Assembly (NCBI GenBank): GCA_052388135.1 | Contig: JBQTIM010000069.1 | Span: 4,290 to 68,289 of the forward strand | DNA from: Elusimicrobiota bacterium | Lineage (GTDB): Bacteria > Elusimicrobiota > Elusimicrobia > FEN-1173 | Reading direction: 5' to 3' | DNA length: 64,000 nucleotides | Part shown: piece by piece, positions 10,257-60,009 of the stretch | Layout of the letters: the number at the start of each line of letters is the position of its first letter | How positions within the stretch are numbered: position 1 is the stretch's first letter | The notes under the pieces: generated by a model | Told to the model about the DNA's origin: nothing | What the model saw: the letters and a program-made list of their open reading frames with translations, nothing else | Database searches by the model: none | Position numbers and translations under genes: made by a program

Positions 10257-10369
10257 TAAGGCCGCTTTGCGCCTTATGAAGTATGATCTGACGACCCGGC
10301 TGTAATGGGCGGACTTCTTTTTAAGCCCAGGCGACAGCCGAAAATTCGACCGTGCATGAGGGATGCGCC

Positions 10370-21216: not shown

Positions 21217-23226
21217 ATGAGCCGGGCCGAGTGGCTGTTGTTTTTAAGGAAGATCCCTTTTTTCGCCGGGTTCAGCGACGACGAGCTCGACGGCGTCGCG
21301 GCCCGCATGACCTTGGAAGCCCTGCCCAAGGACGCGGTCCTGTTCCGCCAGGGCGACCCGGGGGACGCGCTTTACATCGTCTACTCGGGGCACTTGCGCG
21401 TGATGAGCGGGGAGAACGGCCAGTCGCGCATCCTGGCCCACGTGGGCCGCCGCGGCGACGTGTTGGGCGAGATGGCCCTTCTGACCGGCGAGCCGCGCCG
21501 CAACACGGTGGAGGCCGATTCCACCACGGAGCTTTTGGTCCTGCGGCGGAAAGATTTCGAACCTCTCCTGCGTGAGCGGCCCGCCATGGCCGTTCACATT
21601 TCCCGCTTCCTGTCCCGGCGCCTGGCGGACGTCATCAAGACCAAGACCGCGGCCACGGCGGGCAGCTGGACGCCGCGGATCCATCCCGTCATGAGCCACC
21701 TGTCCCTGCCCAACCGGGTGGTGTTCACGGTGAACCTGGCCTTGGCCCTGGCCGAGCAGACCCGGCGGAAAGTTCTGCTTCTGGACATCCACGACCAGGA
21801 GTCGGGCCTCTTCGCCATGTCCCTGGGGCTGGCGCCGGTGCGCAGCGGCGAGCGGTCCCTGCGGCACGAGGACCTGGCGTCGCCCGAAGTGCTGGCGCGG
21901 CTGACGGTGTATCACCCTTCGGGGCTCGAGCTCCTGAGCCTGCCCCTGTCGCTCATCGAGGGAAAGTTCTTCAGCTCCATCTACCCCTTGCTGGCCATCC
22001 TGCGCGAGGTCTACGACATCACCCTGCTGGTCATGCCCCCGCGCCTTTCGGCGGCGGCCCGGGCCGTTTTGGAGGAGTCGGACTCCCTGATTTACGTGGA
22101 GAAGGACTCGCCCTCGCCGGGGGACGCGGAGCTGCTGGAGGGTCTGGCCGGCTTCCGGACGGCGGACCAGATTTTCCGCGTGCAGCTGGCCGAGGGGCCT
22201 CCCATGCAGGGCGGACCGGCGGTGAACTTCCGGCTTCCCTGGCGGACCACCTTGGGGCGGGAGCGCATGGAGGCGCACAACGTTTTCCTGCCCGACGACG
22301 CGCCCCTGACGCGGCGCCTCATGGACCGCCTGGCGCGGCGCCTGGGCGGCCTGCGCATCGGCTTCGCCATGGGGTCGGGGGCGGCCTACGGCTACACCAT
22401 GATCGGCATGTTGAGGGTGATGGAGCGGCACGGCATTTTCCCCGACGTCATCGCCGGCACGTCCATCGGCGCGCTCATCGGCGCGTTCTACGCCGCGGGC
22501 AAGACGCCCGACGAGCTGGAGCGCATCGCCGTGAGCATCACCAAACGGAAGATGCTCGCTTTGGCCGATTTCACGGTGCCTTGGCAGGGCGTCCTGTTGG
22601 GCCGGGAGGTGCTGAAATTTTTGAAGGAGCATCTGGGCGACAAGACGTTCGAGGAGCTGGACACGCCCTTCGCCTGCGTGGCCACGAACATTCAAACCGG
22701 GGAAGAGGTGGTGCTGAAGCAGGGGAAAGCGGCGGAGGCGGTGCGGGCGTCCTTGTCCCTGCCGTTTTTTTTCCAGCCCTTCTTCCATCAAGGGAGCTAT
22801 TTGGTGGACGGCGGCCTGGTGAACCCGGTGCCCACGTCGGTGGTGGCGTCTTTGGGGGCGAACGTGCTCGTGTCGGTGAACCTCACCTGCCGCCCGTCGG
22901 AGAAGCGCTTCCCCGGCATGAAGCGCAGCAGCCGCCGCTATTCCTCCGCTTATTTGAAGGGCCCGAACATTTTTCAGGTGATGTTGAAAACGCTCTACAC
23001 CATGCAGTACGAGGTGGCGCTCACGCGGTCGGAGATTTCCCACGTCACGCTCACGCCGGACATCGCGGCCTTCGCCTGGTCGGAGTTTCACCGCGCTCCG
23101 GAGATCATCAAGGTGGGCGAGGAGCTCATGGAGGAAAGCCTGCCCAAGATCAAGGCGCTCCTGCCCTTCTACGCCGACACCTGCCGCGTGCCCCTGCGCC
23201 TGCCGGCCGCCTTAGGCCGGTATTAG
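21217..23226 (+). CDS. cyclic-nucleotide-binding domain protein fused to a patatin-like phospholipase
   Basis: N-terminal cNMP-binding fold ('FRQGDPGDALYIVYSGHLRV…GEMALLTGEPRRNTV'). C-terminal patatin domain with oxyanion 'GSGAAYG', nucleophile 'GTSIG' and 'DGG'. Confidence 0.75.
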   Translation: MSRAEWLLFLRKIPFFAGFSDDELDGVAARMTLEALPKDAVLFRQGDPGDALYIVYSGHLRVMSGENGQSRILAHVGRRGDVLGEMALLTGEPRRNTVEADSTTELLVLRRKDFEPLLRERPAMAVHISRFLSRRLADVIKTKTAATAGSWTPRIHPVMSHLSLPNRVVFTVNLALALAEQTRRKVLLLDIHDQESGLFAMSLGLAPVRSGERSLRHEDLASPEVLARLTVYHPSGLELLSLPLSLIEGKFFSSIYPLLAILREVYDITLLVMPPRLSAAARAVLEESDSLIYVEKDSPSPGDAELLEGLAGFRTADQIFRVQLAEGPPMQGGPAVNFRLPWRTTLGRERMEAHNVFLPDDAPLTRRLMDRLARRLGGLRIGFAMGSGAAYGYTMIGMLRVMERHGIFPDVIAGTSIGALIGAFYAAGKTPDELERIAVSITKRKMLALADFTVPWQGVLLGREVLKFLKEHLGDKTFEELDTPFACVATNIQTGEEVVLKQGKAAEAVRASLSLPFFFQPFFHQGSYLVDGGLVNPVPTSVVASLGANVLVSVNLTCRPSEKRFPGMKRSSRRYSSAYLKGPNIFQVMLKTLYTMQYEVALTRSEISHVTLTPDIAAFAWSEFHRAPEIIKVGEELMEESLPKIKALLPFYADTCRVPLRLPAALGRY

Positions 23227-45614: not shown

Positions 45615-46802
45615 ATGAAGAGGATCGCCATCCTGGGCTCCACGGGCTCCATCGGCGTGAACGCCCTGGACGTGTTGAGGCGGCTGAACCGGTCCAACGG
45701 CGCGCGGCCGTCCTATCAGGCCTGGGGCTTGGCGGCGGACAAGAACGTGGGCGCCCTGAAAAAACAGATTTTGGAGTTTCGCCCATCGGCGGCCGCGGTG
45801 GCGGACCCGCGCGCCGCGGCCGAGCTGAAAACCTGGGCGCGCCGGCGCGCGCCGCGCCTTAAAGTGTGGGAAGGGCGGGCGGGCCTGGAGCGCCTGGCGG
45901 CCGCGCCCGAGACGGATCTTTTGCTTTCTGGCGTCGTGGGCGCGGCGGGCCTGGCGCCGCTCATGGCGGCGGTGCGGGCGGGCAAGAAAGTGGCCCTGGC
46001 CAACAAGGAATCCCTGGTGGCGGCGGGCGGACTGATCACCGCCGAAGCGAAGCGTTCCGGCGCGGAGCTGATTCCCGTGGACAGCGAGCACTCGGCCATG
46101 TTCCAATGCCTGCAATCCTCGCCCCGGCGGCACATCCGCCGGCTCATCCTGACGGCGTCGGGCGGCGCTTTCTACAAACGCAAAGGCTCTTTGGACAAGG
46201 TGACGGCGCGGCAGGCGCTCAACCACCCGACGTGGAAAATGGGCGACAAGATCACCATAGACTGCGCCACGCTCATGAACAAGGGCCTGGAAGCCATCGA
46301 GGCGCACCATTTGTTCGGCGTGCCCATGGACAAGATCGGCATCGTGGTCCATCCCCAGTCCATCGTGCACTCCCTGGTGGAGTTCTCGGACGGCGCCATG
46401 CTGGCCCAGCTGTCCCACCCGGACATGCGCCTGCCGATCCAATACGCGCTGACGCACCCGGACCGCCTGCCCACGCCCCTGCGGACGCTGGAGCTGGAGG
46501 AGGTCCGCCGGCTGGATTTCCGGGCTCCGAATTTCCGCCGGTTCCCCTGCCTGGAGCTGGCTCTCTCGGCGGGCCGCCGCGGCGGCACCTGGCCGGCGGC
46601 GCTCAACGGGGCCAACGAGGACGCGGTGCGGGCTTTCCTCGAAGGCCGCCTCTCGTTTTTGGGAATCCCGCGGGTCATCCGACGGGTGCTGGAGAAGCAC
46701 AAGCCGAATTTGCGCCCCGCGCTGGAGGATGTTCACGCGGCCGATGAGTGGTCGCGGCGGGAAGCGGAAGCCGTTATTGATAGAATGAAGGAAGGCGGAT
46801 GA
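45615..46802 (+). CDS. dxr: 1-deoxy-D-xylulose 5-phosphate reductoisomerase
   Basis: 'IAILGSTGSIG', 'LANKESLV' and 'VDSEHSA'. Confidence 0.9.
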   Translation: MKRIAILGSTGSIGVNALDVLRRLNRSNGARPSYQAWGLAADKNVGALKKQILEFRPSAAAVADPRAAAELKTWARRRAPRLKVWEGRAGLERLAAAPETDLLLSGVVGAAGLAPLMAAVRAGKKVALANKESLVAAGGLITAEAKRSGAELIPVDSEHSAMFQCLQSSPRRHIRRLILTASGGAFYKRKGSLDKVTARQALNHPTWKMGDKITIDCATLMNKGLEAIEAHHLFGVPMDKIGIVVHPQSIVHSLVEFSDGAMLAQLSHPDMRLPIQYALTHPDRLPTPLRTLELEEVRRLDFRAPNFRRFPCLELALSAGRRGGTWPAALNGANEDAVRAFLEGRLSFLGIPRVIRRVLEKHKPNLRPALEDVHAADEWSRREAEAVIDRMKEGG

Positions 46803-46878
46803 GGAGCGGAGCAAATCCCGCCGCCGGCGCTTCGCGCGCCGTTCGTCCGGCGTCCGCCGCCGACTCTGAGGAGGGTCC

Positions 46879-48018
46879 ATGTCCATTTTGATCAGCGCCC
46901 TGGCCATCGTGCTGGTGTTCGGGGTGGTTATCTTCGTCCACGAGTTCGGCCATTTCATCGTCGCCAAGAAGTCCGGCGTGAAGGTGGACCGCTTTTCCTT
47001 CGGCTTGGGGCCGGAAATTTTCGGCTTCAACTGGGGCGAGACCCGCTACTGCGTCGCCTGGATTCCCCTGGGCGGCGAGGTGCGCATGGCGGGCGAGGCC
47101 GCCTTCGAGGAGGGCGACCCCGACAAGCCGCCCCAGCCCCGGGACCCGCGCGAATTTTTCGCCAAGCCCTGGTACCGCCGCATCCCCATCGTGGTGGCGG
47201 GCCCGGCCATGAACTACGTGCTGGCGTTCCTGATTTTTTCCGTCATGGCCCTGACCTGGGGCGACCCCCGCATCTCCCCCGAGCCCGTCATCGGCGAAGT
47301 GATGGCCGGCTACCCGGCCGAGGAAGCCGGCCTGCGGGCGGGGGACCGCGTGCTTTCTTTGGACGGAAAGCCCGTGGCCGCCTGGACGGAGATGGCCGAA
47401 GGGATCCACGGGCGGGCCGACCAGGCGGTGGCCGTGGAATACAAGCGGGGCGAGGAAACCGGCACGGTGCGGCTCACCCCGCGCCTCGGGCCCGAAGGCC
47501 GCGGCCTCATCGGCGTCACGCCTTCCACCGTTTTCGACAAAGTGGGCTTCTGGACCGCCTGGGTCCGCGGCGCCCAGCAGACCTGGATGTGGACGGAATA
47601 CACCCTCCGCTACCTGGGAGAAAAACTCGTCAAGCGCGAGAAGCCGGAGCTGTCGGGCCCCCTGGGCATCGCCACCGTGGTGGCCAAGGCGACGCGGGCC
47701 GGCGTCCAGGACATGCTCTACCTCATCGCCCTCATTTCCGTGGGCATCGGCCTCTTCAACCTGTTCCCCATCCCGCTCCTGGACGGCGGTCACCTCATGT
47801 TCTACCTTTGGGAAGGCATCACCAAGCGCCCCGTCACCCGCCGCGCCATGTCCGTGGCCAACACCCTGGGGCTTTCCCTGCTCCTCACCGTGCTGGTCTT
47901 CGCCACCTACAGCGACATCCAGCGCATGCGGGGCGGAAAAGGCGGGGACACGGAGACGTCCCAGCCGAAGGACGCCGGCGCCGCCGAAACAAAACCCGAG
48001 AGCCCCGCCGTTCCATGA
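46879..48018 (+). CDS. rseP: site-2 protease RseP (zinc metalloprotease with PDZ domain)
   Basis: 'HEFGH' in the first TM helix, a PDZ segment, and 'LNLLPIPxLDGG'-type motif 'FNLFPIPLLDGGH'. Confidence 0.85.
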   Translation: MSILISALAIVLVFGVVIFVHEFGHFIVAKKSGVKVDRFSFGLGPEIFGFNWGETRYCVAWIPLGGEVRMAGEAAFEEGDPDKPPQPRDPREFFAKPWYRRIPIVVAGPAMNYVLAFLIFSVMALTWGDPRISPEPVIGEVMAGYPAEEAGLRAGDRVLSLDGKPVAAWTEMAEGIHGRADQAVAVEYKRGEETGTVRLTPRLGPEGRGLIGVTPSTVFDKVGFWTAWVRGAQQTWMWTEYTLRYLGEKLVKREKPELSGPLGIATVVAKATRAGVQDMLYLIALISVGIGLFNLFPIPLLDGGHLMFYLWEGITKRPVTRRAMSVANTLGLSLLLTVLVFATYSDIQRMRGGKGGDTETSQPKDAGAAETKPESPAVP

Positions 48019-48081
48019 GTCTCTTCTCCTCCGGCCCCGCGTGCTGAAGTTCCGCCTCGCCGCCTCGCGGCGCGCCCTTTC

Positions 48082-49782
48082 ATGAGGCTTTCCCGCGCCC
48101 TCGCCCCGACGCTGCGCGAGCCGCCCCGCGACGCCGACAGCGTCTCGGCCAAACTCATGCTGCGGGCCGGCCTCGTGCGCAAGGTGGCGGCGGGCCTTTA
48201 CGAGTGGCTGCCTCTGGGCCTGCGGGTCCTGCGCAAGGTGGAGCGCATCATCCGCGAGGAGATGGACCTCATCGGCGGCCAGGAAGTTTCCCTGCCCGTC
48301 CTCCAGCCCAAATCGTTGTGGGAGGAAACCGGCCGCTGGCAGGTCTACGGCAAAGAGCTCATGCGCCTCTCCGACCGCAAGGACGCCGAGTTCTGCCTGG
48401 CCCCCACCGCCGAGGAGGTCATCACCGACCTGGCGCGGCGCGAGGTGCGCTCCTACCGCGAGCTCCCGCTCCTGCTCTACCAGTTCGGGGCCAAGTTCCG
48501 GGACGAGATCCGCCCGCGCTTCGGCGTCATGCGCGCGCGCGAGTTCCTCATGAAAGACGCCTACTCCTTCCACGCCGACGAGGAAAGCCTGGAGGGAACC
48601 TACCGCGCGGCCTACGAGGCCTACAAGAAAATCTTCACCCGCTGCGGCCTGGACTTCCGTCCCGTGGAGGCCCAAAGCGGCGCCATCGGCGGCAGTTTCT
48701 CCCACGAGTTCATGGTGCTGGCGGAAACGGGCGAGGAAGCCATCGCCTCCTGCGCCTGCGGCTACGCGGCCAACGCCGAACGCGCCGAGATCAAGGACGG
48801 CGGCCCCGCGGAGAAGCCCGAACAACCCCAGCCTCTCCAAGAAGTGGACACCCCGGGCGCCTGGACCGTGGAGGCCGTGGCGAAGCTCCTGGGCGAGCCG
48901 CCGGAAAAATTCATCAAGACCCTCTTTTACGTGGCCGACGGAAAACCCGTGGTGGCCCTGGTGCGCGGCGACGCGGAGCTCAACGAGGCCAAACTGCAAA
49001 GGCTGCTCGGCGCGAAACTCCTGCACAAGGCTTCCGACGAGGTTTACCGCCAGGCGGCGGGCTGCGACGTGGGTTTCGCCGGGCCCGGCGGCCTCAAGGC
49101 CCCCGTCTACGCGGACCACGGCCTGCGGCACCTCGCCAACGCCGTGTCCGGCGCGGGAAAAAAAGACAAGCATCTTAAGAACATCAATTTCGGCCGCGAT
49201 TACGGCGTGGAGGCCTTCGCCGACCTTCGCGTGGCCAAGCCCGGCGACGCCTGCCCCCGCTGCGGCCGGCCGCTGACCTTCTCCCGCGGCATCGAGGTGG
49301 GCCACGTGTTCAAGCTGGGCACGAAATACTCCGAAGCTTTGCAAGCCGGCTTCCTGACGGAAAAAGGCGCCAAGGCGCCTTTCCTCATGGGCTGCTACGG
49401 CATCGGCGTCAGCCGCGTCGTAGCCGCCGCCATCGAGCAGCGCCACGACGACGCCGGCATCGCCTGGCCGCCCGCCCTGGCGCCCTACCACGTGCTGGTT
49501 TTGCCCTTGAACGTCACCCACCCCGGCGTCCTGTCCGCCGCGGAAAAAATCTACGCCGAGCTGGCCGCCCGGGGCGTGGAAGTTCTGCTGGACGACCGCG
49601 ACCGCCGCGCCGGCGAAAAGTTCGCCGACGCGGACCTGCTGGGCATCCCCTGGCGCGTGGTGGTCGGCGAGAAGAAGCTGGCCGCCGGTCTGGCCGAGCT
49701 CAAGCGCCGCTCCTCCCCCCAGGCCGAAGACGTGCCGCTGGACGTTGTGCCGGACCGCCTCCTCAAAGACCTCTCCGCCTAA
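48082..49782 (+). CDS. proS: prolyl-tRNA synthetase (bacterial type with editing insertion)
   Basis: Class-II motifs 'FRDEIRPRFGVMRAREFLMKDAYSF' and 'GCYGIGVSR'. Confidence 0.9.
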   Translation: MRLSRALAPTLREPPRDADSVSAKLMLRAGLVRKVAAGLYEWLPLGLRVLRKVERIIREEMDLIGGQEVSLPVLQPKSLWEETGRWQVYGKELMRLSDRKDAEFCLAPTAEEVITDLARREVRSYRELPLLLYQFGAKFRDEIRPRFGVMRAREFLMKDAYSFHADEESLEGTYRAAYEAYKKIFTRCGLDFRPVEAQSGAIGGSFSHEFMVLAETGEEAIASCACGYAANAERAEIKDGGPAEKPEQPQPLQEVDTPGAWTVEAVAKLLGEPPEKFIKTLFYVADGKPVVALVRGDAELNEAKLQRLLGAKLLHKASDEVYRQAAGCDVGFAGPGGLKAPVYADHGLRHLANAVSGAGKKDKHLKNINFGRDYGVEAFADLRVAKPGDACPRCGRPLTFSRGIEVGHVFKLGTKYSEALQAGFLTEKGAKAPFLMGCYGIGVSRVVAAAIEQRHDDAGIAWPPALAPYHVLVLPLNVTHPGVLSAAEKIYAELAARGVEVLLDDRDRRAGEKFADADLLGIPWRVVVGEKKLAAGLAELKRRSSPQAEDVPLDVVPDRLLKDLSA

Positions 49783-49946: not shown

Positions 49947-49980
49947 CCCTTTAAAGCCGCCCGCCCCCCCGGGCGGCTTT
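49947..49980 (+). terminator. intrinsic terminator: 8-bp perfect GC stem gccgcccg/cgggcggc, 6-nt C loop, then T8
   Basis: Read directly from 'gccgcccgcccccccgggcggctttttttt', ~165 nt after the proS stop. Confidence 0.7.
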
Positions 49981-50015: not shown

Positions 50016-50044
50016 TTGAAAAAGGCCTCAAATCGTCGCATAAT
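50016..50044 (+). promoter_or_regulatory. sigma70-type promoter candidate: TTGAAA, 17-nt spacer, CATAAT
   Basis: Optimal spacing, ~60 nt upstream of ATG 50105. Confidence 0.5.
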
Positions 50045-50104: not shown

Positions 50105-50578
50105 ATGCCGTTCGACGACACCATATTTTTCAAGCAGAACGCCGAGCTCATCCAATTTTTCGGCGACCTCACCGACGACCAACTCCGGGAGCTCACGGCC
50201 GTCATCGAGCGCGACACCTACGACAGCGGCCGCACCGAGCTGTTTCAGGGGGAGATGACGCACAACTTCTACATCGTCAAGCGGGGGCGCGTCACCGTCA
50301 CCGCCCGCGACACCAAGCAGAAGGACAAGATCATCCTGGCGGAGCTGAAGGCCGGAGATTTCTTCGGCGAGATATCCCTTTTGGAGGCCACCACGGCCAC
50401 CGCCACCATAAAAGTGGTGGAGGACGGCACCGAAATCCTCACCATTCCCCGGGACGCCTTCCAGAACCTCCTGCGGGAAGCGCCCCACCTGGAAGGCGCC
50501 CTGCGCCGGCGCATCGCCGCACGCAAGGAACAAAAAACGCAGGCCTTCAAGAAGCCCGAGGACGACGAGGTCGTCTAA
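50105..50578 (+). CDS. cyclic-nucleotide-binding domain protein (single cNMP domain, ~157 aa)
   Basis: 'FFKQNAELIQFFGDLTDDQL…GEMTHNFYIVKRGRVTV…GDFFGEISLL'. Start taken at MPFDD, because the upstream part of the track ORF covers the promoter. Confidence 0.65.
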   Translation: MPFDDTIFFKQNAELIQFFGDLTDDQLRELTAVIERDTYDSGRTELFQGEMTHNFYIVKRGRVTVTARDTKQKDKIILAELKAGDFFGEISLLEATTATATIKVVEDGTEILTIPRDAFQNLLREAPHLEGALRRRIAARKEQKTQAFKKPEDDEVV

Positions 50579-50721
50579 GCGCCTTCTCCGTTCCAAATCC
50601 GCGTTCCCACCCGTCTGAAAATCGCCCGCCTACGTCCCGGTCCCCCGCTCTTGAGGCGGGCACGCGCTTCCATGAGAAAAGTGTTGAAGAGACGCCCCAA
50701 TTCGCATAAGCTTATAGCCGC

Positions 50722-53625
50722 ATGAAAAAGAGTTGGGTGATGGACACGTTGGTGGGAATTTCTTTGAGCCTGGCCGTGGCGGCCGCGGCGTTCTTCCGCT
50801 GGCCCGTGACGGAGGCCTTGGAGAGCCGGCTCTACGACCTGCGCCTCCAGCATTCCCCCAAAGCCCCCCTGTCGGATCAAATCCTCTTCGTGGCCATAGA
50901 CGACGCCAGCCTGGAATCCGCGGGCCGCTGGCCCTGGCCGCGGAGCTACATCGGCCAGATGGTCCAGCAGATCGGCGCCGGGCGGCCCAAGGTCATCGGC
51001 GTCAATATTTTCTTTACCGAAGCGGACGAGAACCAGGGCTTGGAGCGCGTCCGCAACCTCCGCCAGCAGTACGTCGAGGCCGCCGGCGACCCGGCCATCG
51101 CCACCCTGCAGGCGCTCGTGAAAAAGGACAGGAAACTGCGGTGGGCGGAGACCGTCCTGGATCCTCTCTTGGACATGGACATCCTGTTCGCCGAGGCCGA
51201 GGACAGCCTGGACAACGACCGCGCCCTGGCCCTGGCCCTGCAGGAAACCCCCCGCGTGGTCCTGCCCATGACGTTCACGAGTCTGGAGGCTCCTCTGGCC
51301 GGGGAGCCGCCCGAGCTGCTGGACCGCATGAAAACCCGCGCCCTGGCGGAAGGCGAGCCGACGCCCCGGTCGGCGGTTCCGGAGGGTTACGCTCCCCTCC
51401 TTCCCCTGGAAAAATTTGCCGGCGCCGCGGCCGGCCTCGGCCACAGCAACATCTTCAAGGACTGGGACGGCTCCGTGCGGCGCGAGGCGCCGGTGGTCCG
51501 CTACCAGGGCCGCCTGTTTCCCTCACTGGCTTTGGAGATGGCCCGCGTGGCCCGCGGCCTGGCGCCGGAGGACGAGAAGGTGTCGCCCGGGCGCGACGTC
51601 CTTCTGGGCGAAACGCGCATTCCTCTCGACGGAGAAAGCCGCGCGCTCATCAATTTCCCGTCGTCGTTTTCCGACCTCAAGACGGTGTCCGCCGTGGACG
51701 TCCTGGCGGAAAAAATCCCGCCCGAAACCTTCAAGGACAAGCTGGTGCTGCTCGGCCCCATGGCCTCGGGCCTGGGCACGCTTTTCGTGACGCCGGTGGA
51801 AGCCAACTACCCCGACAGCGGCGTCATCGTCACCTCTCTGCAGAACATTTTGGGCGGCTCGTTCCTCCAGAGGCCGGCGTGGGCTTTCCAGGCGGAGATG
51901 GGCGCCTTGCTGGCGGTGGCCTTGTTCGTGTCGTTCCTCCTGCCGCACCTGCGGGCCCGCATGGGCGCCCTTTGCGCTCTCTTGCTCCTCATCGCGCTGG
52001 GCGCCGCCGGCGCCTATCTTTTCGTGGCCCAAAAAATCTGGGTGAAGATTTTCTACGGCATGGCGCTTTTGGTTCTGGGCTACGGCCTCATCACCCTGCG
52101 GCGCTTCTTCTTCACGGAGCGGCGCAAGGAGCTCGTGGAGGCGGAGAGCATCGAGACCAACAAGATGCTGGGCCTCTCTTTCCAAGGCCAGGGCATGCTC
52201 GACATGGCCTTCGATAAGTTCCGCAAGTGCCCCGTGGACGACGCCATGAAGGACCTGCTCTACAACCTCGCCCTGGATTTCGAGCGCAAGCGCCAGTTCA
52301 ACAAAGCCGCCGTGGTCTACGAGCACATCGGCAGGACCGACCCGGGCTACAAAGACATCAAGGAACGCCAGAAGGGCGCCAAAACGGCGGGCGACACCAT
52401 GATCGCCGGTCCGGGCCTGGGAGGCAAGCGCGAGGGCACTCTGGTCATGGAGGGTTCCACCGTCAAGCCAACGCTGGGGCGCTACGAAATCGAAAAAGAG
52501 CTGGGCCGCGGCGCCATGGGCGTCGTCTACCTGGGCCGCGACCCCAAGATCAACCGCCAGGTGGCCATCAAGACGCTGCGCTTCAACGACGAGGTGGAGG
52601 AATCCGCCGTCAAGATGGTGCGCGAGCGTTTTTTCCGCGAGGCCGAGTCCGCCGGCACTTTGAACCACCCCAACATCATCCGCATCTTCGACGCCGGCGA
52701 AGACAACGAGGTTTCCTACATCGCCATGGAGCTTCTGGCCGGCGAGGATTTGAAAAAATACACGGACAAGGCCAGCCTCCTGCCGCCCCCGCAGGTGATG
52801 GAGTACGCGGCCTTGATCGCCGACGCGCTGGACTACGCCCACGCCAACGGCGTCATTCACCGCGACATCAAGCCCGCCAACATCATGCGCCTGAAGGACG
52901 GCACCCTGCGCGTCACGGACTTCGGCATCGCCCGCATCGCGGCGTCCTCCAAGACCCAGACCGGCACGGTCATGGGCACGCCCAGCTACATGTCGCCCGA
53001 GCAGATCGCCGGCAAAAAGGTGGACGGCCGCGCGGACCTGTTCTCCCTCGGCGTCATGCTCTACGAGATGCTGACGGGGGAAAAGCCTTTCGACGGGGAC
53101 AGCATCGCCACGCTCCTTTTCCGCATCTCCAACGAGGTCCACCCCGACCCGCGCTTGAAGGCCTCCGACCGCGTGTCCGTCGCCGCTCGGGCCGTCATCG
53201 ACAAGGCCCTGGCCAAGGACCCGGTCCTGCGCTATCAGCGCGGAAGCGAAATGGCGGCCGACCTGCGGGAGGCTTTGAAGACCCCCGGCGCTGCGCCGGC
53301 CAACGCCGCGCGGCCGCCGGTGGAGGAGGAGGTTCCCGTTCCTCCGGCCGACCAGGCCGTCGCGCCCGCGGCCGAGCCGCCCGCGGCCGCGGCCGAGCCG
53401 CCGCCCGATGTTTCTTTCCCCGACATGGGCGCCGGCATCGCCGCCGCCCTGGGAGGACTGACGACGGCGCCGGAGCCCCCGGCCGATCCCTACCCGCCCC
53501 CGAACGCCGCCGAACCCAACGGCCATGGGGCGGAAACCGGAAACGAAAAACCCCTTTCTTCGGAAACCGTCCGCCTGCCGCCCGGCGAAGTCCAATTTCC
53601 CGACGACACCTTGAAAATGCCATGA
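50722..53625 (+). CDS. membrane sensor Ser/Thr protein kinase: N-terminal extracytoplasmic CHASE2-like domain, TM helices, and C-terminal Hanks-type kinase domain with a Pro/Ala-rich tail
   Basis: Kinase motifs 'LGRGAMGVVYLG', 'VAIK', 'HRDIKPANI', 'DFG' and 'GTPSYMSPE'. The N-terminal ~400 aa with flanking TM segments is CHASE2-like. Confidence 0.8.
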   Translation: MKKSWVMDTLVGISLSLAVAAAAFFRWPVTEALESRLYDLRLQHSPKAPLSDQILFVAIDDASLESAGRWPWPRSYIGQMVQQIGAGRPKVIGVNIFFTEADENQGLERVRNLRQQYVEAAGDPAIATLQALVKKDRKLRWAETVLDPLLDMDILFAEAEDSLDNDRALALALQETPRVVLPMTFTSLEAPLAGEPPELLDRMKTRALAEGEPTPRSAVPEGYAPLLPLEKFAGAAAGLGHSNIFKDWDGSVRREAPVVRYQGRLFPSLALEMARVARGLAPEDEKVSPGRDVLLGETRIPLDGESRALINFPSSFSDLKTVSAVDVLAEKIPPETFKDKLVLLGPMASGLGTLFVTPVEANYPDSGVIVTSLQNILGGSFLQRPAWAFQAEMGALLAVALFVSFLLPHLRARMGALCALLLLIALGAAGAYLFVAQKIWVKIFYGMALLVLGYGLITLRRFFFTERRKELVEAESIETNKMLGLSFQGQGMLDMAFDKFRKCPVDDAMKDLLYNLALDFERKRQFNKAAVVYEHIGRTDPGYKDIKERQKGAKTAGDTMIAGPGLGGKREGTLVMEGSTVKPTLGRYEIEKELGRGAMGVVYLGRDPKINRQVAIKTLRFNDEVEESAVKMVRERFFREAESAGTLNHPNIIRIFDAGEDNEVSYIAMELLAGEDLKKYTDKASLLPPPQVMEYAALIADALDYAHANGVIHRDIKPANIMRLKDGTLRVTDFGIARIAASSKTQTGTVMGTPSYMSPEQIAGKKVDGRADLFSLGVMLYEMLTGEKPFDGDSIATLLFRISNEVHPDPRLKASDRVSVAARAVIDKALAKDPVLRYQRGSEMAADLREALKTPGAAPANAARPPVEEEVPVPPADQAVAPAAEPPAAAAEPPPDVSFPDMGAGIAAALGGLTTAPEPPADPYPPPNAAEPNGHGAETGNEKPLSSETVRLPPGEVQFPDDTLKMP

Positions 53626-53707
53626 CCCGCGCGGGGGGGGGCAGGAGCGTTGAGGGCGAGAAAAATCAGGCGCGCGGTCCGCGCGCTCTCCGCCGGAGGT
53701 TTCCGTC

Positions 53708-54544
53708 GTGAAAATTTCCTCCGCCGGCCTCACGGATCCCGGCCAGGTCCGACGGAACAACGAAGACAGCTATTGGGTGGAGCCGGAGACGGGCCTCTAC
53801 ATCGTGGCCGACGGCATGGGCGGCCACGCCGCCGGAGAGGTGGCCAGCCGCATGGCGGTGGAGGTGATCCGCGAGCAAGTTTCGGCGGGCCTCGCCTCCG
53901 GGCGCATCCCCGCGGTGGGGGACAAGATGCTCCACGTGTCCCAGCGGGCCCGCCTCCTGGGCGCCGCCGTGCAGATGGCCAACGACGTGATTTTTTCCGC
54001 CGCCCAGGAGAACTTGGAAAAAAAGGGCATGGGCACCACCCTGGTGGCGATCCTGCTGGACAAGTCCCGTTTCGCCGTGGCGCACGTGGGCGACAGCAGG
54101 CTCTACCTCCATCGGTCGGGCCGGCTGGAGCAGCTCACCCGCGATCACTCCGTGGTGGCCGAGCAGGTGGCCCGCGGCCTCATCACGGCGGCCCAGGCGG
54201 AAACTTCGGATTTACGGAACGTGCTGTCGCGGGCCCTGGGCGTGGCGCCGGAGGTGCGGGTGGACGTGGACGAGCACCCCTTCCGGTCCGGCGATTCCCT
54301 GCTCCTCTGCTCCGACGGCCTCTATCGCGTGGTCCCCGATGACGATATGGGGCGGGAGCTGGCGCGGCGCGACCCTCCCGCCGAAACCTGCCGGCGGCTC
54401 GTCGAAGCGGCCAACGGCGCCGGCGGACCCGACAACATCACCGTCGTCCTCATCCGACGGGAGAAAACGGCTTTGTGGCCCCGCATCGCGGGGTATTTCA
54501 ATCCAGGAAAGGGCCTCCAGCGCTATGGTCAAGCTCCTTCTTAA
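53708..54544 (+). CDS. PP2C-family Ser/Thr protein phosphatase
   Basis: 'GQVRRNNEDS', 'VADGMGGHAAGEVAS' and 'LLCSDGL'. Confidence 0.85.
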   Translation: MKISSAGLTDPGQVRRNNEDSYWVEPETGLYIVADGMGGHAAGEVASRMAVEVIREQVSAGLASGRIPAVGDKMLHVSQRARLLGAAVQMANDVIFSAAQENLEKKGMGTTLVAILLDKSRFAVAHVGDSRLYLHRSGRLEQLTRDHSVVAEQVARGLITAAQAETSDLRNVLSRALGVAPEVRVDVDEHPFRSGDSLLLCSDGLYRVVPDDDMGRELARRDPPAETCRRLVEAANGAGGPDNITVVLIRREKTALWPRIAGYFNPGKGLQRYGQAPS

Positions 54545-55235
54545 ATTCAACGCGGCGGTGATCCGGGAATTCCCCTTCGACAAGGACCAGGTCACCATCG
54601 GCCGCAAGCCGGACAACGACATCGTCATAGACAACCCCGCCGTCTCGGGCTTGCACGCCCGCATCGTGAAGCAGGGCGGGGACTACCTTCTGGAGGATAT
54701 GCAAAGCACCAACGGCACGTACCTCCACGAGCGCAAGATCGTCAAGGCCAGCCTCCGCCACAAGGACGAGGTGGGCGTGGCCAAGCACACCATCGTCTTC
54801 TTGAACGACGAGGAGGCTCCCGCCGCCGTCCCGGCCGCGCCCGCCAAATCGGCCTCTCCCGACGCCACCATGGTCATCGCCGCGCCGGCCCCCGCTTCCA
54901 AAGAGGCCAAGGCCGTCGACGTGGTGGGAGGTTTGCGCGTGGTCAAAGGCCAGACCACCGCCGCCCAGTTCAGCTTGGTGGGCCTCACCACCTATATAGG
55001 TAAGTCGGACCAGGCCGCCATCCGCTTGAAAGGCCTTTTCGCCCCCGACCTCGCCGCCTGCGTGGCCCGCCAGCCCGAGGGTTACTATTTGAAGGCCATC
55101 AAACCCAAGTCGGTCAAGCACAACCACCAAGTGGTGACGGACCAAATCCCCCTCCAAGAAGGGGATTTGATCGAGGTGGGGAACCTTCAATTGGTTTTTT
55201 ACCACCAAAGCGCCGCCGGGCCGCTGTCCGGATAG
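54525..55235 (+). CDS. FHA-domain protein, apparently with two FHA-like modules
   Basis: 'VTIGRKPDNDIVIDNPAVSGLHARIV…STNGTYLH'. Start taken at MVKLLLKF, overlapping the phosphatase stop by 20 nt. Confidence 0.7.
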   Translation: MVKLLLKFNAAVIREFPFDKDQVTIGRKPDNDIVIDNPAVSGLHARIVKQGGDYLLEDMQSTNGTYLHERKIVKASLRHKDEVGVAKHTIVFLNDEEAPAAVPAAPAKSASPDATMVIAAPAPASKEAKAVDVVGGLRVVKGQTTAAQFSLVGLTTYIGKSDQAAIRLKGLFAPDLAACVARQPEGYYLKAIKPKSVKHNHQVVTDQIPLQEGDLIEVGNLQLVFYHQSAAGPLSG

Positions 55236-55334
55236 GCGGCCGAGCCGGGCCTTGAAATCCGGCCGGAGCGGACTTAAAATTATCGGGAGATATTCTTGCG
55301 GGCGTTGAGGCGATTTACCATAATGGGGGCGGTT

Positions 55335-57032
55335 ATGAAAAAGAGCTTAACGCTTGTCGCGCTGGGGTTCTTCTTGGCCGCGCCGTCCCTCCGGGCGGCG
55401 GAGTTGAAATCCGTGAGGGGCTCAGCGCAGGTGCAGCGCGCCGGCGCCCAATCCTGGGCGGCCGCCAAGTCCGGTTCCCGCGTGAAAGACGGCGACACCG
55501 TCAAGACCGGCCCCGGCTCCCAGACCGACATCCTGCTTCCCCAGGGCCACCGCCTTCTGGTGCGCGAGCGCACCACTTTAAAAATAGATTCCTCCAACCC
55601 CGACGACATGCGTCTTTCCCTGGCCGCCGGCCGCGTGCGCGCCTTCGTCGCCAAACTCAGAAAGCGCAACAAATTCGAGATGCGCACCCCCGTGGCCGTG
55701 GCGTCGGTGCGCGGCACCGTTTTTGAGTTGGAGGTGGGGGAAGACCAGTCCTCGCGGCTGTCCGTCCTGGAAGGAAGCGTCAACTACCGCGACTTGGCCG
55801 GCCTGGGAAGCGACGTTTTGGTTCTTCAGGGCAACAGTGTGCTCATTGAGCCCGGCGCCGCGCCGCGCGCGCCCGAGCCGCTGCCCGCCGACATGAGCGA
55901 AGGTCTCATGCCCGACCGGGAAGACCTCCAGGCCCGGTTCGATCTCAAGGCCGAGGTCGCCCGCGAGACGGGCCTGCAGGCCTTCAAGGACTACTTCCAG
56001 ACCGACGCCGCCCAGGAGATGAAGACCGCCCAATACCAGGAAGGCAAGACGCTCATCGACGCCTTCGGCCACCGCGTCCGCCTGGAGGAATACATCACCC
56101 GCCCCGCGCCCGAGCAATTTTCCTTCGTGGCCCTCAACACGCGCGAGGACCGCTTCGACTTCACCCGCTTCGACCTCTACGCCGCCAAGCCCCTGCCCGA
56201 GGACCTGGGCTCCGTCAACCTGTTTCGCCAGCCCGGCTCCGGCCCCATGGACAACTGGGCCGTCAAGACCCACCGCCTGTCCTCCAACGGCGGCGATTAC
56301 TACCGCGAATGGCAGGACGGCGGCGCGCCCGTGCCAATGACGGGAACCGACGGGCCTTACAAGCAGGTGGTCTTCAACGACTGGTTCGTGGAGGTTCGTG
56401 GCGCCGGCAGCGAGCCCACGCTCCTTTCCCACTGGCAGCCCCACCCCGATTTCAAGAGCGGTCTCAATCCCGATGTGAACGCAACGCGCGACAAGAACGA
56501 TAGGGATCTGGACGGCAGCCAGGACATCCCCAGCGGCTACGAGGACTTTCTGTCCGGCGGTGCCGGCACCGTGGGCGACGACCGGCCCATAGACTTGGCT
56601 GGATTCAGCGCCGCCGACCGCCTGAAGGCCTTCGACATGCCCGCCGTGGCTTCCGCCTACGCCCTCAGCGAGGGCTACCGGCGCGAAAGCGTGGCTGTCT
56701 TGGACGGATTGACGCTGGCGGAAATCAGGGCCCGCTTCCCGGACGGCAACGACCGGGTCCGCTTCATCCTCCACAGCACGGAGTTCGGCAACCAAAGCGT
56801 CTACAAGCGGGCCGAAGTTACCGGCGGCTCCGACATCACGGTGCGCAACAACACCTACTACATTTCCGACGAGGGCCGGCGCCTCAACGCCGGGCAGGCC
56901 TCGACCATCGGTTCGCGCCTGGACGGCTTGAACCTCCAGGACGTGTTCACCTCGCCCACTCTGATGGGCGGCCGCAAAATAGACGTCGTCATCAGCCCCG
57001 GCATTTTCCGCCGGGCCAACCTCCTCGACTAG
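55335..57032 (+). CDS. secreted FecR-domain protein with a long conserved C-terminal region of unknown function (paralogue 1)
   Basis: Signal peptide. FecR-like 'SVRGSAQVQRAGAQSWAAAKSGSRVKDGDTVKTGPGSQ…RTPVAVASVRGTVFELEV'. About 60% identity with the next ORF along the whole length. Confidence 0.6.
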   Translation: MKKSLTLVALGFFLAAPSLRAAELKSVRGSAQVQRAGAQSWAAAKSGSRVKDGDTVKTGPGSQTDILLPQGHRLLVRERTTLKIDSSNPDDMRLSLAAGRVRAFVAKLRKRNKFEMRTPVAVASVRGTVFELEVGEDQSSRLSVLEGSVNYRDLAGLGSDVLVLQGNSVLIEPGAAPRAPEPLPADMSEGLMPDREDLQARFDLKAEVARETGLQAFKDYFQTDAAQEMKTAQYQEGKTLIDAFGHRVRLEEYITRPAPEQFSFVALNTREDRFDFTRFDLYAAKPLPEDLGSVNLFRQPGSGPMDNWAVKTHRLSSNGGDYYREWQDGGAPVPMTGTDGPYKQVVFNDWFVEVRGAGSEPTLLSHWQPHPDFKSGLNPDVNATRDKNDRDLDGSQDIPSGYEDFLSGGAGTVGDDRPIDLAGFSAADRLKAFDMPAVASAYALSEGYRRESVAVLDGLTLAEIRARFPDGNDRVRFILHSTEFGNQSVYKRAEVTGGSDITVRNNTYYISDEGRRLNAGQASTIGSRLDGLNLQDVFTSPTLMGGRKIDVVISPGIFRRANLLD

Positions 57033-57035
57033 CTC

Positions 57036-58793
57036 GTGCGAGCGCCGGCCGCCCTCTTCCTGCTGGCCTTCGCGGCCGCGCCTCTGGCCGCCGCTCCGGC
57101 GGAACTGCGCTCCCTGCGCGGAACCGTTGAAATCCGCAAAGCCGGCTCCGGGGCGTGGGTGGCCGTCTCCTCCGGCGCCCGCGTGGGCAACGGCGATTCC
57201 CTCCGCACCGCCGAGAACGCCCGGGCCGAAATGGCCATGCCCCAGGGCCACCGGCTTACGCTCCGCCAAAAGACCACTCTCCGCATGGATTCCTCCGACC
57301 CGAAAGACACCCGGTTCAGCCTCACGGTGGGCCGCGTGCGCGCCTTCGTCGCCAAGCTCAAGAAGCGCGACAAATTTGAAATGCGCACCCCCGTGGCCGT
57401 GGCTTCCGTCCGCGGCACCGTGTTTGAAATGGACGTGAGGGAGGACTTCACGTCCCGCCTCTCGGTTTTGGAAGGGGACGTGGGTTACAAGGACCTGGCC
57501 GGACTGGCCGGCGAGTTCGTCGTTTCCGGAGGACAGAGCGTGGTGGTGGACGCGGGCGGCGTCGGCAAGCCCGAAACCGTCCCTCCGGATGTCCTCCTGG
57601 ATAAGGAGCCCGGGGAGCCTGAGAAAATCCCCGAAGGCGAAAAACCCGGGGAAAAGAAGGAGGAAAAGAAAGAGGAGAAAGCGGAAGAAAAGAAAAAAGA
57701 TCTCCGCGGCCGCCGGGATAAGGACGATCCCAAGGGCAAAATTTCCGCGCGCGAGGAGGCGCGGCAGGAATTCCGCGTTGAGATGGAGAAAGAGATCAGC
57801 CTGGACGCCTTCCGGGATTTCATTCAAACCGACGTCGCCCAGGAATTGCAGCAGAACGAATATCAGAAGGGGACCACGCTCATAGACGCCTTCGGCCGCC
57901 GCGTGCGCATGGAGGAATACATCACCCGCCCGGCCAAGAACCAGTATTCCTTCATCTCCCTCAACACCCGCGAAGACCGCTTCGACCGCACCCAGTTCGA
58001 CGTCTACGCCCGCGACGCCCTCCCGGAGGATCTCAGCTCCGTCAATTTGTTCCGCCAGGAGAAACCCATGGACAACTGGGCCGAGAAAACCCATTACATC
58101 TCTTCCAATGACAAGGGCGATTATTATCGGGAATGGCGCGACGGCGGCCAGCAGGTCTTTATGCAGGATAAGAACTTCCACCAGGTGGTCTTCGACCATT
58201 GGTATATAGAAGTGAAAGGCGATGGCGAGGCCGTCCTTCTTTCCCACTGGGTGCCCGACGCCAATTTCCGCAGAGGGACCTTCGACGCGACGCAGTCCCG
58301 CGACGAACAGGCGCTCAAGGACGACGGCCTCCTGGACATCCCCTCCGGCTACGACGAGTACGGCCATACGACCGGCACCGTGGGCGACGATCGCTACGTG
58401 GACGATTTCGACAATAAAACGCGCATGGCCTATTTCACGGACAGCCGCGTCGCCGACAAATACCGGCTGAGCGAAGGCTATTCCCGTAAAAGCCGGCCGC
58501 TTTACGACGACGTGTTCACCATGGATTCCGCCCAGCAGCAGAAGGCCGGCAAGTTCTCCCGCGAGGACACTTACTTCCACCCTGACAACAAGATATTCCT
58601 CCGCACGGACACCTACACCCTCACCGACGAAGGCGGCCGTGTGCCGCTGGGCAAACTGCAGGAAACCGGTTTCGGGCCCGACGGGCTCAACGTGCAGAGG
58701 GTGTTCAGCTCCTCGCTCCTGCCCAAACGCAACATCGACGTGATTTTCGACAACGCCGTGCTTCTCAAGCAAGCCGGCCATCTGGAGAGATAA
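57036..58793 (+). CDS. secreted FecR-domain protein (paralogue 2) with an inserted K/E-rich acidic linker
   Basis: GTG start. 'SLRGTVEIRKAGSGAWVAVSSGARVGNGDSL…RTPVAVASVRGTVFEMDV'. The conserved C-terminal blocks 'TLIDAFGRRVRMEEYITRPA', 'SLNTREDRFD' and 'PMDNWAEKTH' are shared with the upstream ORF. Confidence 0.6.
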   Translation: MRAPAALFLLAFAAAPLAAAPAELRSLRGTVEIRKAGSGAWVAVSSGARVGNGDSLRTAENARAEMAMPQGHRLTLRQKTTLRMDSSDPKDTRFSLTVGRVRAFVAKLKKRDKFEMRTPVAVASVRGTVFEMDVREDFTSRLSVLEGDVGYKDLAGLAGEFVVSGGQSVVVDAGGVGKPETVPPDVLLDKEPGEPEKIPEGEKPGEKKEEKKEEKAEEKKKDLRGRRDKDDPKGKISAREEARQEFRVEMEKEISLDAFRDFIQTDVAQELQQNEYQKGTTLIDAFGRRVRMEEYITRPAKNQYSFISLNTREDRFDRTQFDVYARDALPEDLSSVNLFRQEKPMDNWAEKTHYISSNDKGDYYREWRDGGQQVFMQDKNFHQVVFDHWYIEVKGDGEAVLLSHWVPDANFRRGTFDATQSRDEQALKDDGLLDIPSGYDEYGHTTGTVGDDRYVDDFDNKTRMAYFTDSRVADKYRLSEGYSRKSRPLYDDVFTMDSAQQQKAGKFSREDTYFHPDNKIFLRTDTYTLTDEGGRVPLGKLQETGFGPDGLNVQRVFSSSLLPKRNIDVIFDNAVLLKQAGHLER

Positions 58794-58797
58794 AACC

Positions 58798-60009
58798 ATG
58801 AAAAAAACTTTCGTTGCCTTCGTCCTTTCGGCGTTCGCGGCGACCGGCGCGCGGGCCGAGGTGCAGTGGGCCCCGTTCCTGGACGCCGAGGTTTTCGGCG
58901 GCCGGTCCACCTTCTCCGGCGACGACGTCGACGGCCTGAACGGCTCCCTGCGCTTCGTCCCGGGCCTGCGCCTGTCGGAGAAGCTTTCTCTCCTGCCCGC
59001 GCTGGCCTTCGCCTACCGCAAGTCCCGCGACGTGCAGGAACTGGCCGGCGGCGGCTTCCTCACCCAACAGGCCCAGACGCGCTCGGCGTCCCTCAAGGGC
59101 ATCCACGCCCTGGGCGATTCTTGGAAGGGCAAGGCCTACGTCTCCTACCGTCAGGAGCTCCTCAAGGAAACGTCCGACGAGGACTGGGGCGACGGACTCT
59201 TCGACCACGACAAGACGGCCGTGGGACTGGAGGCCGAGCGCGAGGGGTCCCTCTGGAAAAGCCTCCGCTTCGGGCTCGACTATTACCAGACGCGCTTCCC
59301 CAATTTCCAGACTCTCGCCAGCAAACAGCTGGGCTCGGAGATCAACGCCGGAACCGACGTTCTGGACTTCGATTCCGTGGACGGCTCCCTGGGCGCCGAC
59401 CTTTCCCTGGGCCAGGGGTCTTTGCTCTCGAGTTACCTGCTGGTGTCCAATCGCGATTTTTCCGACCAAAAGATCGTGAGGCGGGACGGGACCTTCTCCG
59501 GCGATTTGCGCAACGACCTTTACTCCTATTTGTCGCTCGGTTGGCGGCGCCAGCTTCCCACGGTCTCCCTTTTCGGCATGGGCGTGGAAAGCCTGGCCGG
59601 CGTGGACGCTTCCTACGCCCGCCTGGATTCCAACCAGCACAGCTACGACGCCTCGCGCACCCGCTTCAACGAGAACTACTACGACTACGGCGAGATCGGC
59701 GGCGGGCCCCGCATCAACCTGCGCTTTAAAGAGAAGCTTTCGGCCGGCTTCGCCTTCATCTATTCCGTGCGGGACTACGCCGCCCGCCCCGTCCAAAACG
59801 TGGACGGCAGCTATCCGGCGGCCGGCGAGGCCATCTCCACCAAGACCAACACCTTCCGCTGGTCCCTGGGCTATCCCCTGGTCAAGGGCTTGAGCGCGCG
59901 CCTGCAGGGCGCCCTCCAGCACGCCGATTCCAACATGGATTACGAGACCGTCTACCGCTACAACTACTCCTCCTCAAGCTATTTCGCGGGCCTGGCCTAC
60001 CAGTTTTAA
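58798..60009 (+). CDS. outer-membrane beta-barrel protein, family unknown
   Basis: Signal peptide 'MKKTFVAFVLSAFAATGARA'. Alternating hydrophobic strands, many Y/G/D/S residues, and the C-terminal '…LAYQF' (terminal Phe) typical of OMP beta-signals. Confidence 0.6.
   Translation: MKKTFVAFVLSAFAATGARAEVQWAPFLDAEVFGGRSTFSGDDVDGLNGSLRFVPGLRLSEKLSLLPALAFAYRKSRDVQELAGGGFLTQQAQTRSASLKGIHALGDSWKGKAYVSYRQELLKETSDEDWGDGLFDHDKTAVGLEAEREGSLWKSLRFGLDYYQTRFPNFQTLASKQLGSEINAGTDVLDFDSVDGSLGADLSLGQGSLLSSYLLVSNRDFSDQKIVRRDGTFSGDLRNDLYSYLSLGWRRQLPTVSLFGMGVESLAGVDASYARLDSNQHSYDASRTRFNENYYDYGEIGGGPRINLRFKEKLSAGFAFIYSVRDYAARPVQNVDGSYPAAGEAISTKTNTFRWSLGYPLVKGLSARLQGALQHADSNMDYETVYRYNYSSSSYFAGLAYQF

Follow-up and report, generated by a model that had tools for sequence, protein, structure and literature searches.

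The closest described relatives of the system reported here pair a membrane receptor carrying a periplasmic CHASE2 domain with a secreted FecR-domain protein. The Burkholderia 'BiofilmReg' operon contains a CHASE2 receptor with a FecR-domain neighbour (PMC5192318), and CHASE2 cyclase clusters of Campylobacterota contain a FecR-domain outer-membrane protein (PMC9239204). The pairing is therefore already in the literature, where its mechanism is unexplained and the ligand or input of CHASE2 is still listed as unknown (PMC5192318); in our literature search, very few papers mentioned the CHASE2 domain and a few noted its secreted FecR partner, only in passing. According to two reports, the S. meliloti CHASE2 cyclases CyaK and CyaD1/D2 need the outer-membrane barrel NsrA for signal perception (PMC7529298, PMC13001267). 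In P. aeruginosa, the outer-membrane protein TagQ, which binds the periplasmic protein TagR, acts together with TagR upstream of the kinase PpkA, the phosphatase PppA and the FHA protein Fha1 (PMC7817224). Here we describe a gene cluster in a 64,000-nucleotide stretch of an Elusimicrobiota genome (assembly GCA_052388135.1, contig JBQTIM010000069.1, positions 4,290 to 68,289; hereafter, the window), in which CHASE2 is the periplasmic domain of a Ser/Thr kinase and the envelope partners are two FecR-like proteins and an outer-membrane protein (OMP) predicted to be a beta-barrel. We propose, at about even odds (probability roughly 0.5), that the CHASE2 kinase receives its extracytoplasmic input through the FecR-like proteins and the barrel, which would serve as its input arm.

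The cluster comprises seven co-oriented genes on the + strand at 50105-60009, identified by open reading frame (ORF) listing and translation, which encode in order a cyclic-nucleotide (cNMP)-binding protein, the kinase, a PP2C phosphatase, an FHA protein, the tandem FecR-like proteins FecR-A and FecR-B, and the OMP (Table 1). An initial annotation had listed the last six; these lie on the + strand where it had placed them, two with revised starts, and we add the cNMP gene and a lower figure for the identity of the two FecR paralogues. Its kinase, phosphatase and FHA calls are borne out by Pfam and NCBIfam scores above threshold and by the kinase motifs.

The kinase is the only protein of the cluster predicted to span the inner membrane, with four transmembrane (TM) segments around CHASE2. 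It is laid out as TM1 (residues 6-27), the periplasmic CHASE2 domain (about residues 19-401), three further TM segments (389-459), a linker, a Hanks-type kinase domain (588-839) and a Pro-rich tail. All five motifs looked for (GxGxxG, VAIK, HRD, DFG and SPE) are present, as in an active Hanks-type Ser/Thr kinase. The phosphatase is also matched by the Pfam models PP2C_2 and PP2C, and it is predicted to be cytoplasmic, with no TM segment. In the FHA protein, Yop-YscD_cpl matches two stretches, indicating two FHA-like domains in a cytoplasmic protein whose nearest solved relatives are FHA domains of the GarA/OdhI type. We place its start at 54525 (MVKLL) rather than at 54339; a sibling contig has a gene call of the same 236 residues. 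No hydrophobic segment was found in the cNMP-binding, PP2C or FHA proteins. The kinase is widespread in the phylum, with 752 orthologue matches at E<=1e-20, the best 120 of which are all at least 47% identical.

Evidence that CHASE2 receptors and FecR-domain proteins belong together comes from unrelated genomes. A tblastn search of plasmids with the CHASE2 domain of the window returned 51 records. In 8/8 loci inspected, from eight genera of Alpha- and Betaproteobacteria (Methylosinus, Paracoccus, Paraburkholderia, Eleftheria, Ensifer, Ruegeria, Burkholderia and Paroceanicella), a FecR-domain gene directly adjoins the CHASE2 gene, and Pfam confirms the FecR domain above the gathering score in every one of them. 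The eight CHASE2 proteins have cyclase outputs or, where the operon also encodes a response regulator, presumably histidine-kinase outputs. The C-terminal extensions of the FecR proteins vary from none to LysM or weak TbpB-like matches. The window follows the same pattern: its CHASE2 and FecR genes share a strand and are 1.7 kb apart, the PP2C and FHA genes being the only ones in between. Within Elusimicrobiota, CHASE2-cyclase genes also adjoin cassettes encoding FecR-like proteins and OMPs, in two arrangements (upstream in locus L005; downstream in L025, L065 and L130), and the OMPs of these cyclase-linked cassettes fall in another clade than those of the kinase-linked loci. A kinase-PP2C-FHA set lies convergent to a cassette in L070, where the kinase is cut at the locus end (last 101 residues) and its CHASE2 domain is unconfirmed.

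This recurrent adjacency suggests that the envelope proteins more probably feed the kinase. The initial annotation had proposed an envelope signalling or export module controlled by phosphorylation; its idea of envelope signalling agrees with the repeated CHASE2/FecR pairing, and the direction it gave to the signal is probably the reverse of the actual one. The window shares with the two published clusters and the eight plasmid loci a membrane receptor with periplasmic CHASE2 beside a PF04773 protein with a signal peptide, an output domain that is interchangeable, and a lineage-specific extra domain on the FecR protein. It differs from them in that the output is a Hanks Ser/Thr kinase with PP2C and FHA proteins rather than a histidine kinase or cyclase, the PP2C and FHA genes stand between the CHASE2 gene and the FecR genes, and the envelope half has two FecR paralogues, a 16-strand barrel partner and a C-terminal domain so far seen only in Elusimicrobiota. 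In addition, the same kinase occurs without a FecR neighbour in other Elusimicrobiota, a point to which we return below.

FecR-A consists of a signal peptide, a FecR/PupR-like beta domain, a long helix and an unrecognised C-terminal domain of about 330 residues. Its start is at 55335 (MKKSL), which gives it the same length, 565 residues, as the database protein P0001; this entry, labelled as an Elusimicrobiota metagenome-assembled genome (MAG), is 100% identical to FecR-A across the C-terminal region searched. As the initial annotation had stated, both paralogues have a signal peptide and an N-terminal FecR-like domain: FecR-A, FecR-B and the OMP each show a single hydrophobic stretch, at the N terminus, which reads as a signal peptide by eye, and the FecR-like proteins belong to PF04773 by score and by their PupR/BDI_1681-type fold. 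Four conserved blocks quoted earlier were found again in FecR-A and FecR-B, as was a K/E-rich insertion in FecR-B, a mixed-charge segment (47% K+E over about 70 residues) in the inter-domain linker. The identity between the paralogues, put earlier at about 60%, is 45% by BLASTP (262/582 with gaps, full length) and 49% in the family alignment. Tandem duplication of the FecR-like gene is found only in the window and its 91%-identical siblings; a FecR-B homologue of that identity, P0014, lies on a sibling contig arranged in the same way.

The C-terminal domain of the FecR-like proteins defines a small family. No Pfam or NCBIfam model matches this region, in agreement with the initial annotation, which had not recognised it. 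An AlphaFold2 model of FecR-A built with the family alignment as input has a predicted local distance difference test score (pLDDT) of 89.7; the fold is confidently predicted, and no relative of the C-terminal domain was found among solved structures. A word-indexed search with the C-terminal region gave 49 relatives, all but one of which carry a precomputed FecR domain. A profile of the C-terminal domain alone, run against 1.84 billion cluster representatives, matched 395 clusters (50% identity clusters) at E<=1e-3; their named members are all Elusimicrobiota, and a few are stand-alone proteins without a FecR domain. One stand-alone, FecR-less copy of 330 residues, near a contig end, has genes for an extracytoplasmic function (ECF) sigma factor and a zf-HC2 anti-sigma factor directly upstream (L097:6760-8993).

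Two known FecR-containing groups were considered and rejected. Against the models of the Leptospira proteins LipL45, Lsa33 and Lsa19, the scores are 58, 49 and 42 bits for cutoffs of 350, 420 and 250, and only the FecR domain aligns. A classical anti-sigma factor, as in FecA-FecR-FecI and PupB-PupR, does not fit either: the FecR-like proteins of the window have no anti-sigma N-terminal domain and no TM segment, no ECF sigma factor gene lies in the cluster, and the barrel lacks a plug, an STN domain and any signature of a TonB-dependent receptor. By comparison with those systems, the inner-membrane step would here fall to CHASE2.

The C-terminal Phe and beta-barrel first ascribed to the OMP are both upheld: the protein ends in ...AYQF, and its AlphaFold2 model (family alignment as input) is a 16-strand barrel with a pLDDT of 91.7 and a predicted template modelling score (pTM) of 0.85. 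The OMP has no family match in Pfam or NCBIfam. Its predicted fold matches many barrels of 16 to 18 strands equally well (CdiB 20.9, OprP 19.9, porins about 19, PelB/AlgE about 17-18); these structural matches are generic, and the model cannot be assigned to any specific barrel family. The OMP carries neither POTRA and Bac_surface_Ag signatures nor a porin Pfam signature, and was rejected both as a TpsB/Omp85 transporter and as a classical porin. A database entry labelled as an Elusimicrobiota MAG is 100% identical to it. In a collection of species-representative genomes, 294 relatives were found with a 10-sequence alignment (a 63-sequence alignment had no stretch conserved enough for the scan); the best 80 of the 294 are nearly all labelled Elusimicrobiota, and several genomes have more than one copy. 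A FecR-less paralogue of the OMP occurs in a fixed housekeeping context in L028, L029, L041, L048, L050 and L082 (e.g., L028:7524-14177), in the order CDP-alcohol phosphatidyltransferase, LeuA-like protein, OMP, GAF-PAS histidine kinase and PmbA/TldD.

To compare gene neighbourhoods, we called ORFs on 86 loci and the window, built hidden Markov models from the window domains with one iteration, and clustered all ORFs by BLAST. Upstream sequence of at least 1.8 kb is available for 64 non-identical OMP loci, and in 53 of them a gene for a FecR-like protein or its C-terminal domain lies directly upstream on the same strand. A scan starting from the FecR-like genes gave the same pairing: nearly all metagenome loci that extend far enough downstream contain the OMP, in most cases as the next gene. 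The stop and start codons of the two genes often overlap or lie 2-4 nt apart. The adjacent or overlapping genes of most loci suggest a stoichiometric pair, and the window has this arrangement, a FecR-like gene with the IDAFGxRVRLEEY...LNTRxDRFD C-terminal domain directly upstream of an OMP of the family. The FecR-like protein and the OMP are a multi-copy pair that is almost exclusive to Elusimicrobiota.

In most other loci the pair has further companions. The usual cassette has four genes, sometimes permuted, for the FecR-like protein, the OMP, a giant protein of 1,400-3,400 residues and a protein of about 310 residues. CarboxypepD_reg repeats occur in the giant protein, whose FlgD_ig/CHU_C-like C terminus resembles the C-terminal domain (CTD) of type IX secretion system (T9SS) substrates, and the ~310-residue protein matches UPF0164 and PorV, FadL-like barrels. 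Examples are L003, L006, L025, L034 and about 40 other loci (e.g., L034:8322-19695), and the giant protein is present in 26/35 FecR+OMP loci with well-covered flanks. We found no description of the four-gene cassette in the literature searched, and a search for Elusimicrobia and PorV returned nothing relevant. Non-CHASE2 cyclases lie divergent from FecR-OMP cassettes in L141 (a FIST-cyclase, L141:2-2101, - strand) and L113 (L113:3-1110, - strand, incomplete at the contig edge), and in L057 and L079 genes for small cNMP-binding proteins separate the OMP gene from that of the giant protein; cyclic-nucleotide signalling genes recur around the cassette.

These companions raise the possibility that the FecR-like/OMP pair works chiefly in transport or anchoring (e.g., as a channel plus a periplasmic plug or adaptor) on behalf of giant adhesins with genes elsewhere in the genome, and that its signalling neighbours only regulate its expression through cNMP or phosphorylation. 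Genomes with a kinase-type cluster do carry an ordinary cassette elsewhere (L010 with L034, L008 with L038, L009 with L054), and the frequency of the giant protein and its PorV/UPF0164-like barrel, together with the cNMP-binding proteins and non-CHASE2 cyclases beside some cassettes, is in keeping with such a role. Against this, the window's clade has no giant or PorV-like gene beside the pair, and no member of either family was found in the window; the structural matches of the barrel are generic; and no observation here demonstrates transport. We consider this explanation unlikely. A broader idea, to which we assign a similarly low probability, is that Elusimicrobiota have an undescribed outer-membrane device of their own, built around the FecR-like protein and the barrel, which in its usual form would handle or anchor giant T9SS-CTD-like surface proteins with a dedicated PorV-like barrel. 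The phylum-wide CHASE2 kinase and, in other clades, CHASE2 cyclases would sense by way of the FecR domain what state the device is in, FecR proteins would be a general input to CHASE2, and the window would hold a stripped version for sensing only.

We next consider whether the two halves of the cluster belong together. The cluster is composed of two autonomous modules, kinase-PP2C-FHA and FecR-like/OMP, each conserved separately across Elusimicrobiota. Their combination in the order cNMP, CHASE2-kinase, PP2C, FHA, FecR, OMP, without giant or PorV-like genes, is confined to a single OMP clade, whose members are the window, L001 (identical to L002 and L010), L007, L008, L009, L012, L095, L096, L101 and L102. 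Every member of this clade has kept the two modules juxtaposed and has the cNMP gene directly upstream of the kinase, and wherever flanks are covered, the cluster sits between proS and rimP.

Several observations count against a functional connection and hence against the proposed input arm. Of 35 FecR+OMP loci with well-covered flanks, 30 lack kinase, PP2C and FHA genes within about 10 kb, and 5 have all three; a CHASE2 gene of any kind is near 7/35 of these cassettes and absent near the other 28/35. In 3/3 distant Elusimicrobiota genomes (L098, L099 and L100), the kinase-PP2C-FHA set is self-contained, with no FecR or OMP gene within 8 kb, so the CHASE2-FecR pairing is missing from these orthologue loci. 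This neighbourhood check excludes the single, obligately linked module that the initial annotation had envisaged. Since proS upstream and rimP-nusA downstream are also syntenic in the clade, the preserved adjacency could be simple inheritance. A promoter-like site lies between the FHA and FecR-A genes, and in L009 two genes are inserted between the FHA and FecR-like genes (L009:5453-8224, encoding a 304-residue protein and a 540-residue member of the GAF-PAS histidine-kinase cluster c4). The FIST-cyclase of L141 and the small cNMP-binding proteins of L057 and L079 adjoin cassettes as well, and cytoplasmic-type signalling genes in these positions would agree both with the cassette being regulated by them and with its giving them input.

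One may therefore hold that there is no functional link and that two autonomous modules were juxtaposed once in the ancestor of the clade, remaining neighbours only through proS...rimP-nusA synteny; a single origin is implied by the placement of all kinase-linked OMPs in one clade. This explanation is harder to reconcile with the regular adjacency of FecR-domain genes to CHASE2 in all eight proteobacterial loci, and with the CHASE2 cyclases that, in another clade, independently adjoin members of this cassette family, in two arrangements. We roughly estimate that any one CHASE2 gene would fall within 10 kb of a cassette by chance in a few percent of cases. In L001, also, only 2 nt separate the FHA and FecR-like genes. 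Weighing both sides, we regard the absence of a link as a serious but rather doubtful alternative to an input arm.

If the FecR-like proteins and the barrel are the input arm of the kinase, a signaling route across the envelope can be proposed. In the FecR and PupR systems, contact with outer-membrane transducers is made by the FecR fold. In the window, the barrel and the FecR-like C-terminal domain would bind each other in an outer-membrane-associated complex. The signal, possibly a change at or in the outer membrane, would run inward, relayed through a putative contact of the FecR domain with CHASE2, and this input would switch the cytoplasmic kinase. The FHA protein would then read phosphothreonine on the presumed targets of the kinase, and the PP2C phosphatase would reset the system.

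The initial annotation had suggested the opposite arrangement, in which the FecR-like proteins and the barrel would make up an envelope or export machine, with the kinase/PP2C/FHA set as the post-translational switch that controls its assembly or activity, as PpkA, PppA and Fha act on a type VI secretion system (T6SS). FHA/Ser/Thr kinase/PP2C triads do gate secretion machines (PMC7817224), the FHA protein weakly matches TagH and the YscD cytoplasmic domain, and the giant CTD surface protein and PorV-like barrel that accompany the FecR-OMP pair in most other loci make a role in secretion or anchoring plausible. The predicted topology fits this model poorly: FecR-A, FecR-B and the OMP have no cytoplasmic part, and besides the kinase the cluster contains no inner-membrane export component and no cytoplasmic or inner-membrane part that could be phosphorylated or bind the FHA protein. 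It also contains no ATPase, inner-membrane channel or cargo gene. The FHA protein scores 51 bits against a cutoff of 120 with the TagH/Fha1 model TIGR03354, no T6SS gene is among the annotated genes around the cluster (about 43.8-62.3 kb), which are housekeeping genes, and the triad is conserved elsewhere without such a machine nearby. We consider phosphorylation-controlled export very improbable, since a cytoplasmic kinase could reach no part of the envelope half.

An input arm composed of the FecR-like proteins and the barrel has counterparts in logic. In TagQRST-PpkA-PppA-Fha1, as proposed for the window, outer-membrane and periplasmic proteins stand upstream of a membrane-bound Hanks kinase that is opposed by a PP2C phosphatase and read by an FHA protein, and TagQ and TagR can be likened to the barrel and the FecR-like proteins by role; the window cluster differs in having no T6SS genes and in the low TagH score of its FHA protein. 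With NsrA-CyaK, the common logic is that an outer-membrane barrel gives trans-envelope input to an inner-membrane CHASE2 receptor; NsrA is much larger, with its barrel portion at residues 600-1200, and the output is cAMP.

Coordinates and scores for the cluster are given in Table 1. A strong terminator-like hairpin after proS marks its upstream boundary, and the start of the cNMP gene was fixed by alignment with the L001 orthologue. The flanking genes are housekeeping genes (uppS, cdsA, dxr, rseP and proS upstream; rimP and nusA downstream). Horizontal transfer of the cluster was considered and rejected, as its GC content of 0.61-0.70 is the same as that of the flanks.

Table 1. Features of the gene cluster and its upstream boundary (window coordinates).
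Feature	Position	Strand	Description
Terminator-like hairpin after proS	49953..49980	+	11-bp stem, 8 GC pairs, then T run
Sigma-70-like promoter candidate before cNMP gene	50016..50044	+	TTGAAA-17-CATAAT, 10/12; consensus match only
cNMP-binding protein	50105..50578	+	157 aa, cytoplasmic, single domain; Pfam cNMP_binding 67 bits
Receptor Ser/Thr kinase	50722..53625	+	967 aa; CHASE2 PF05226 194 bits (gathering score 26.3), Pkinase PF00069 193 bits
PP2C phosphatase, Stp1/IreP type	53708..54544	+	278 aa; NCBIfam NF033484 250.4 bits (cutoff 230)
Double-FHA protein	54525..55235	+	236 aa; FHA PF00498 74.5 bits (gathering score 20.7); 20-nt overlap with PP2C gene end
Sigma-70-like promoter candidate in 99-nt FHA/FecR-A gap	55252..55280	+	TTGAAA-17-TAAAAT, 10/12; consensus match only
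FecR-A	55335..57032	+	565 aa; FecR PF04773 62 bits
FecR-B	57036..58793	+	585 aa; FecR 57 bits; tandem paralogue of FecR-A
OMP	58798..60009	+	403 aa, ends ...AYQF; start 4 nt after FecR-B

Other features of the window were recorded alongside the cluster. Long ORFs of up to 1,110 residues run antisense to genes at 55578-58910, 51523-53760 and 46774-49521 (all on the - strand). We read these as shadow ORFs typical of high-GC DNA; for two antisense ORFs just outside the cluster, including that at 46774-49521, Pfam gave no match. At 21217-23226 (+ strand), the window encodes a 669-residue protein with cNMP-binding and patatin-like phospholipase domains. The same architecture is found beside a TPR-FecR-CHASE2-cyclase cluster of Paracoccus pAMI5 (L088), and a patatin gene lies near the kinase triad in L100. 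An ORF of 2,367 residues at 1316-8419 (+ strand) has no Pfam match and is unrelated to the giant proteins of the cassettes; it is followed by genes for a DUF2079 membrane protein (8460-10256) and a phage tail collar domain protein (10352-11515).

The components of the cluster are known families. What is new is the Ser/Thr-kinase/PP2C/FHA output, the phylum-restricted C-terminal domain of the FecR-like proteins, whose fold was not recognised, the fixed partnership with a 16-strand barrel and the clade-specific docking of the two modules. The analysis defines the FecR C-terminal region as a small family, with 395 clusters and a confident predicted fold, and it brings to light a four-gene envelope cassette in Elusimicrobiota, a phylum whose envelope has hardly been studied by experiment; the host is uncultured. 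The most intriguing by-product is the broader cassette of FecR-like protein, barrel, giant CTD protein and PorV-like barrel, which lies outside the window. For the CHASE2 family, the cluster adds to the CHASE2-FecR pairing a Ser/Thr-kinase version with an outer-membrane barrel, and the regular presence of a FecR-domain partner in eight of eight unrelated loci points to a protein co-sensor, rather than a small-molecule ligand, for CHASE2.

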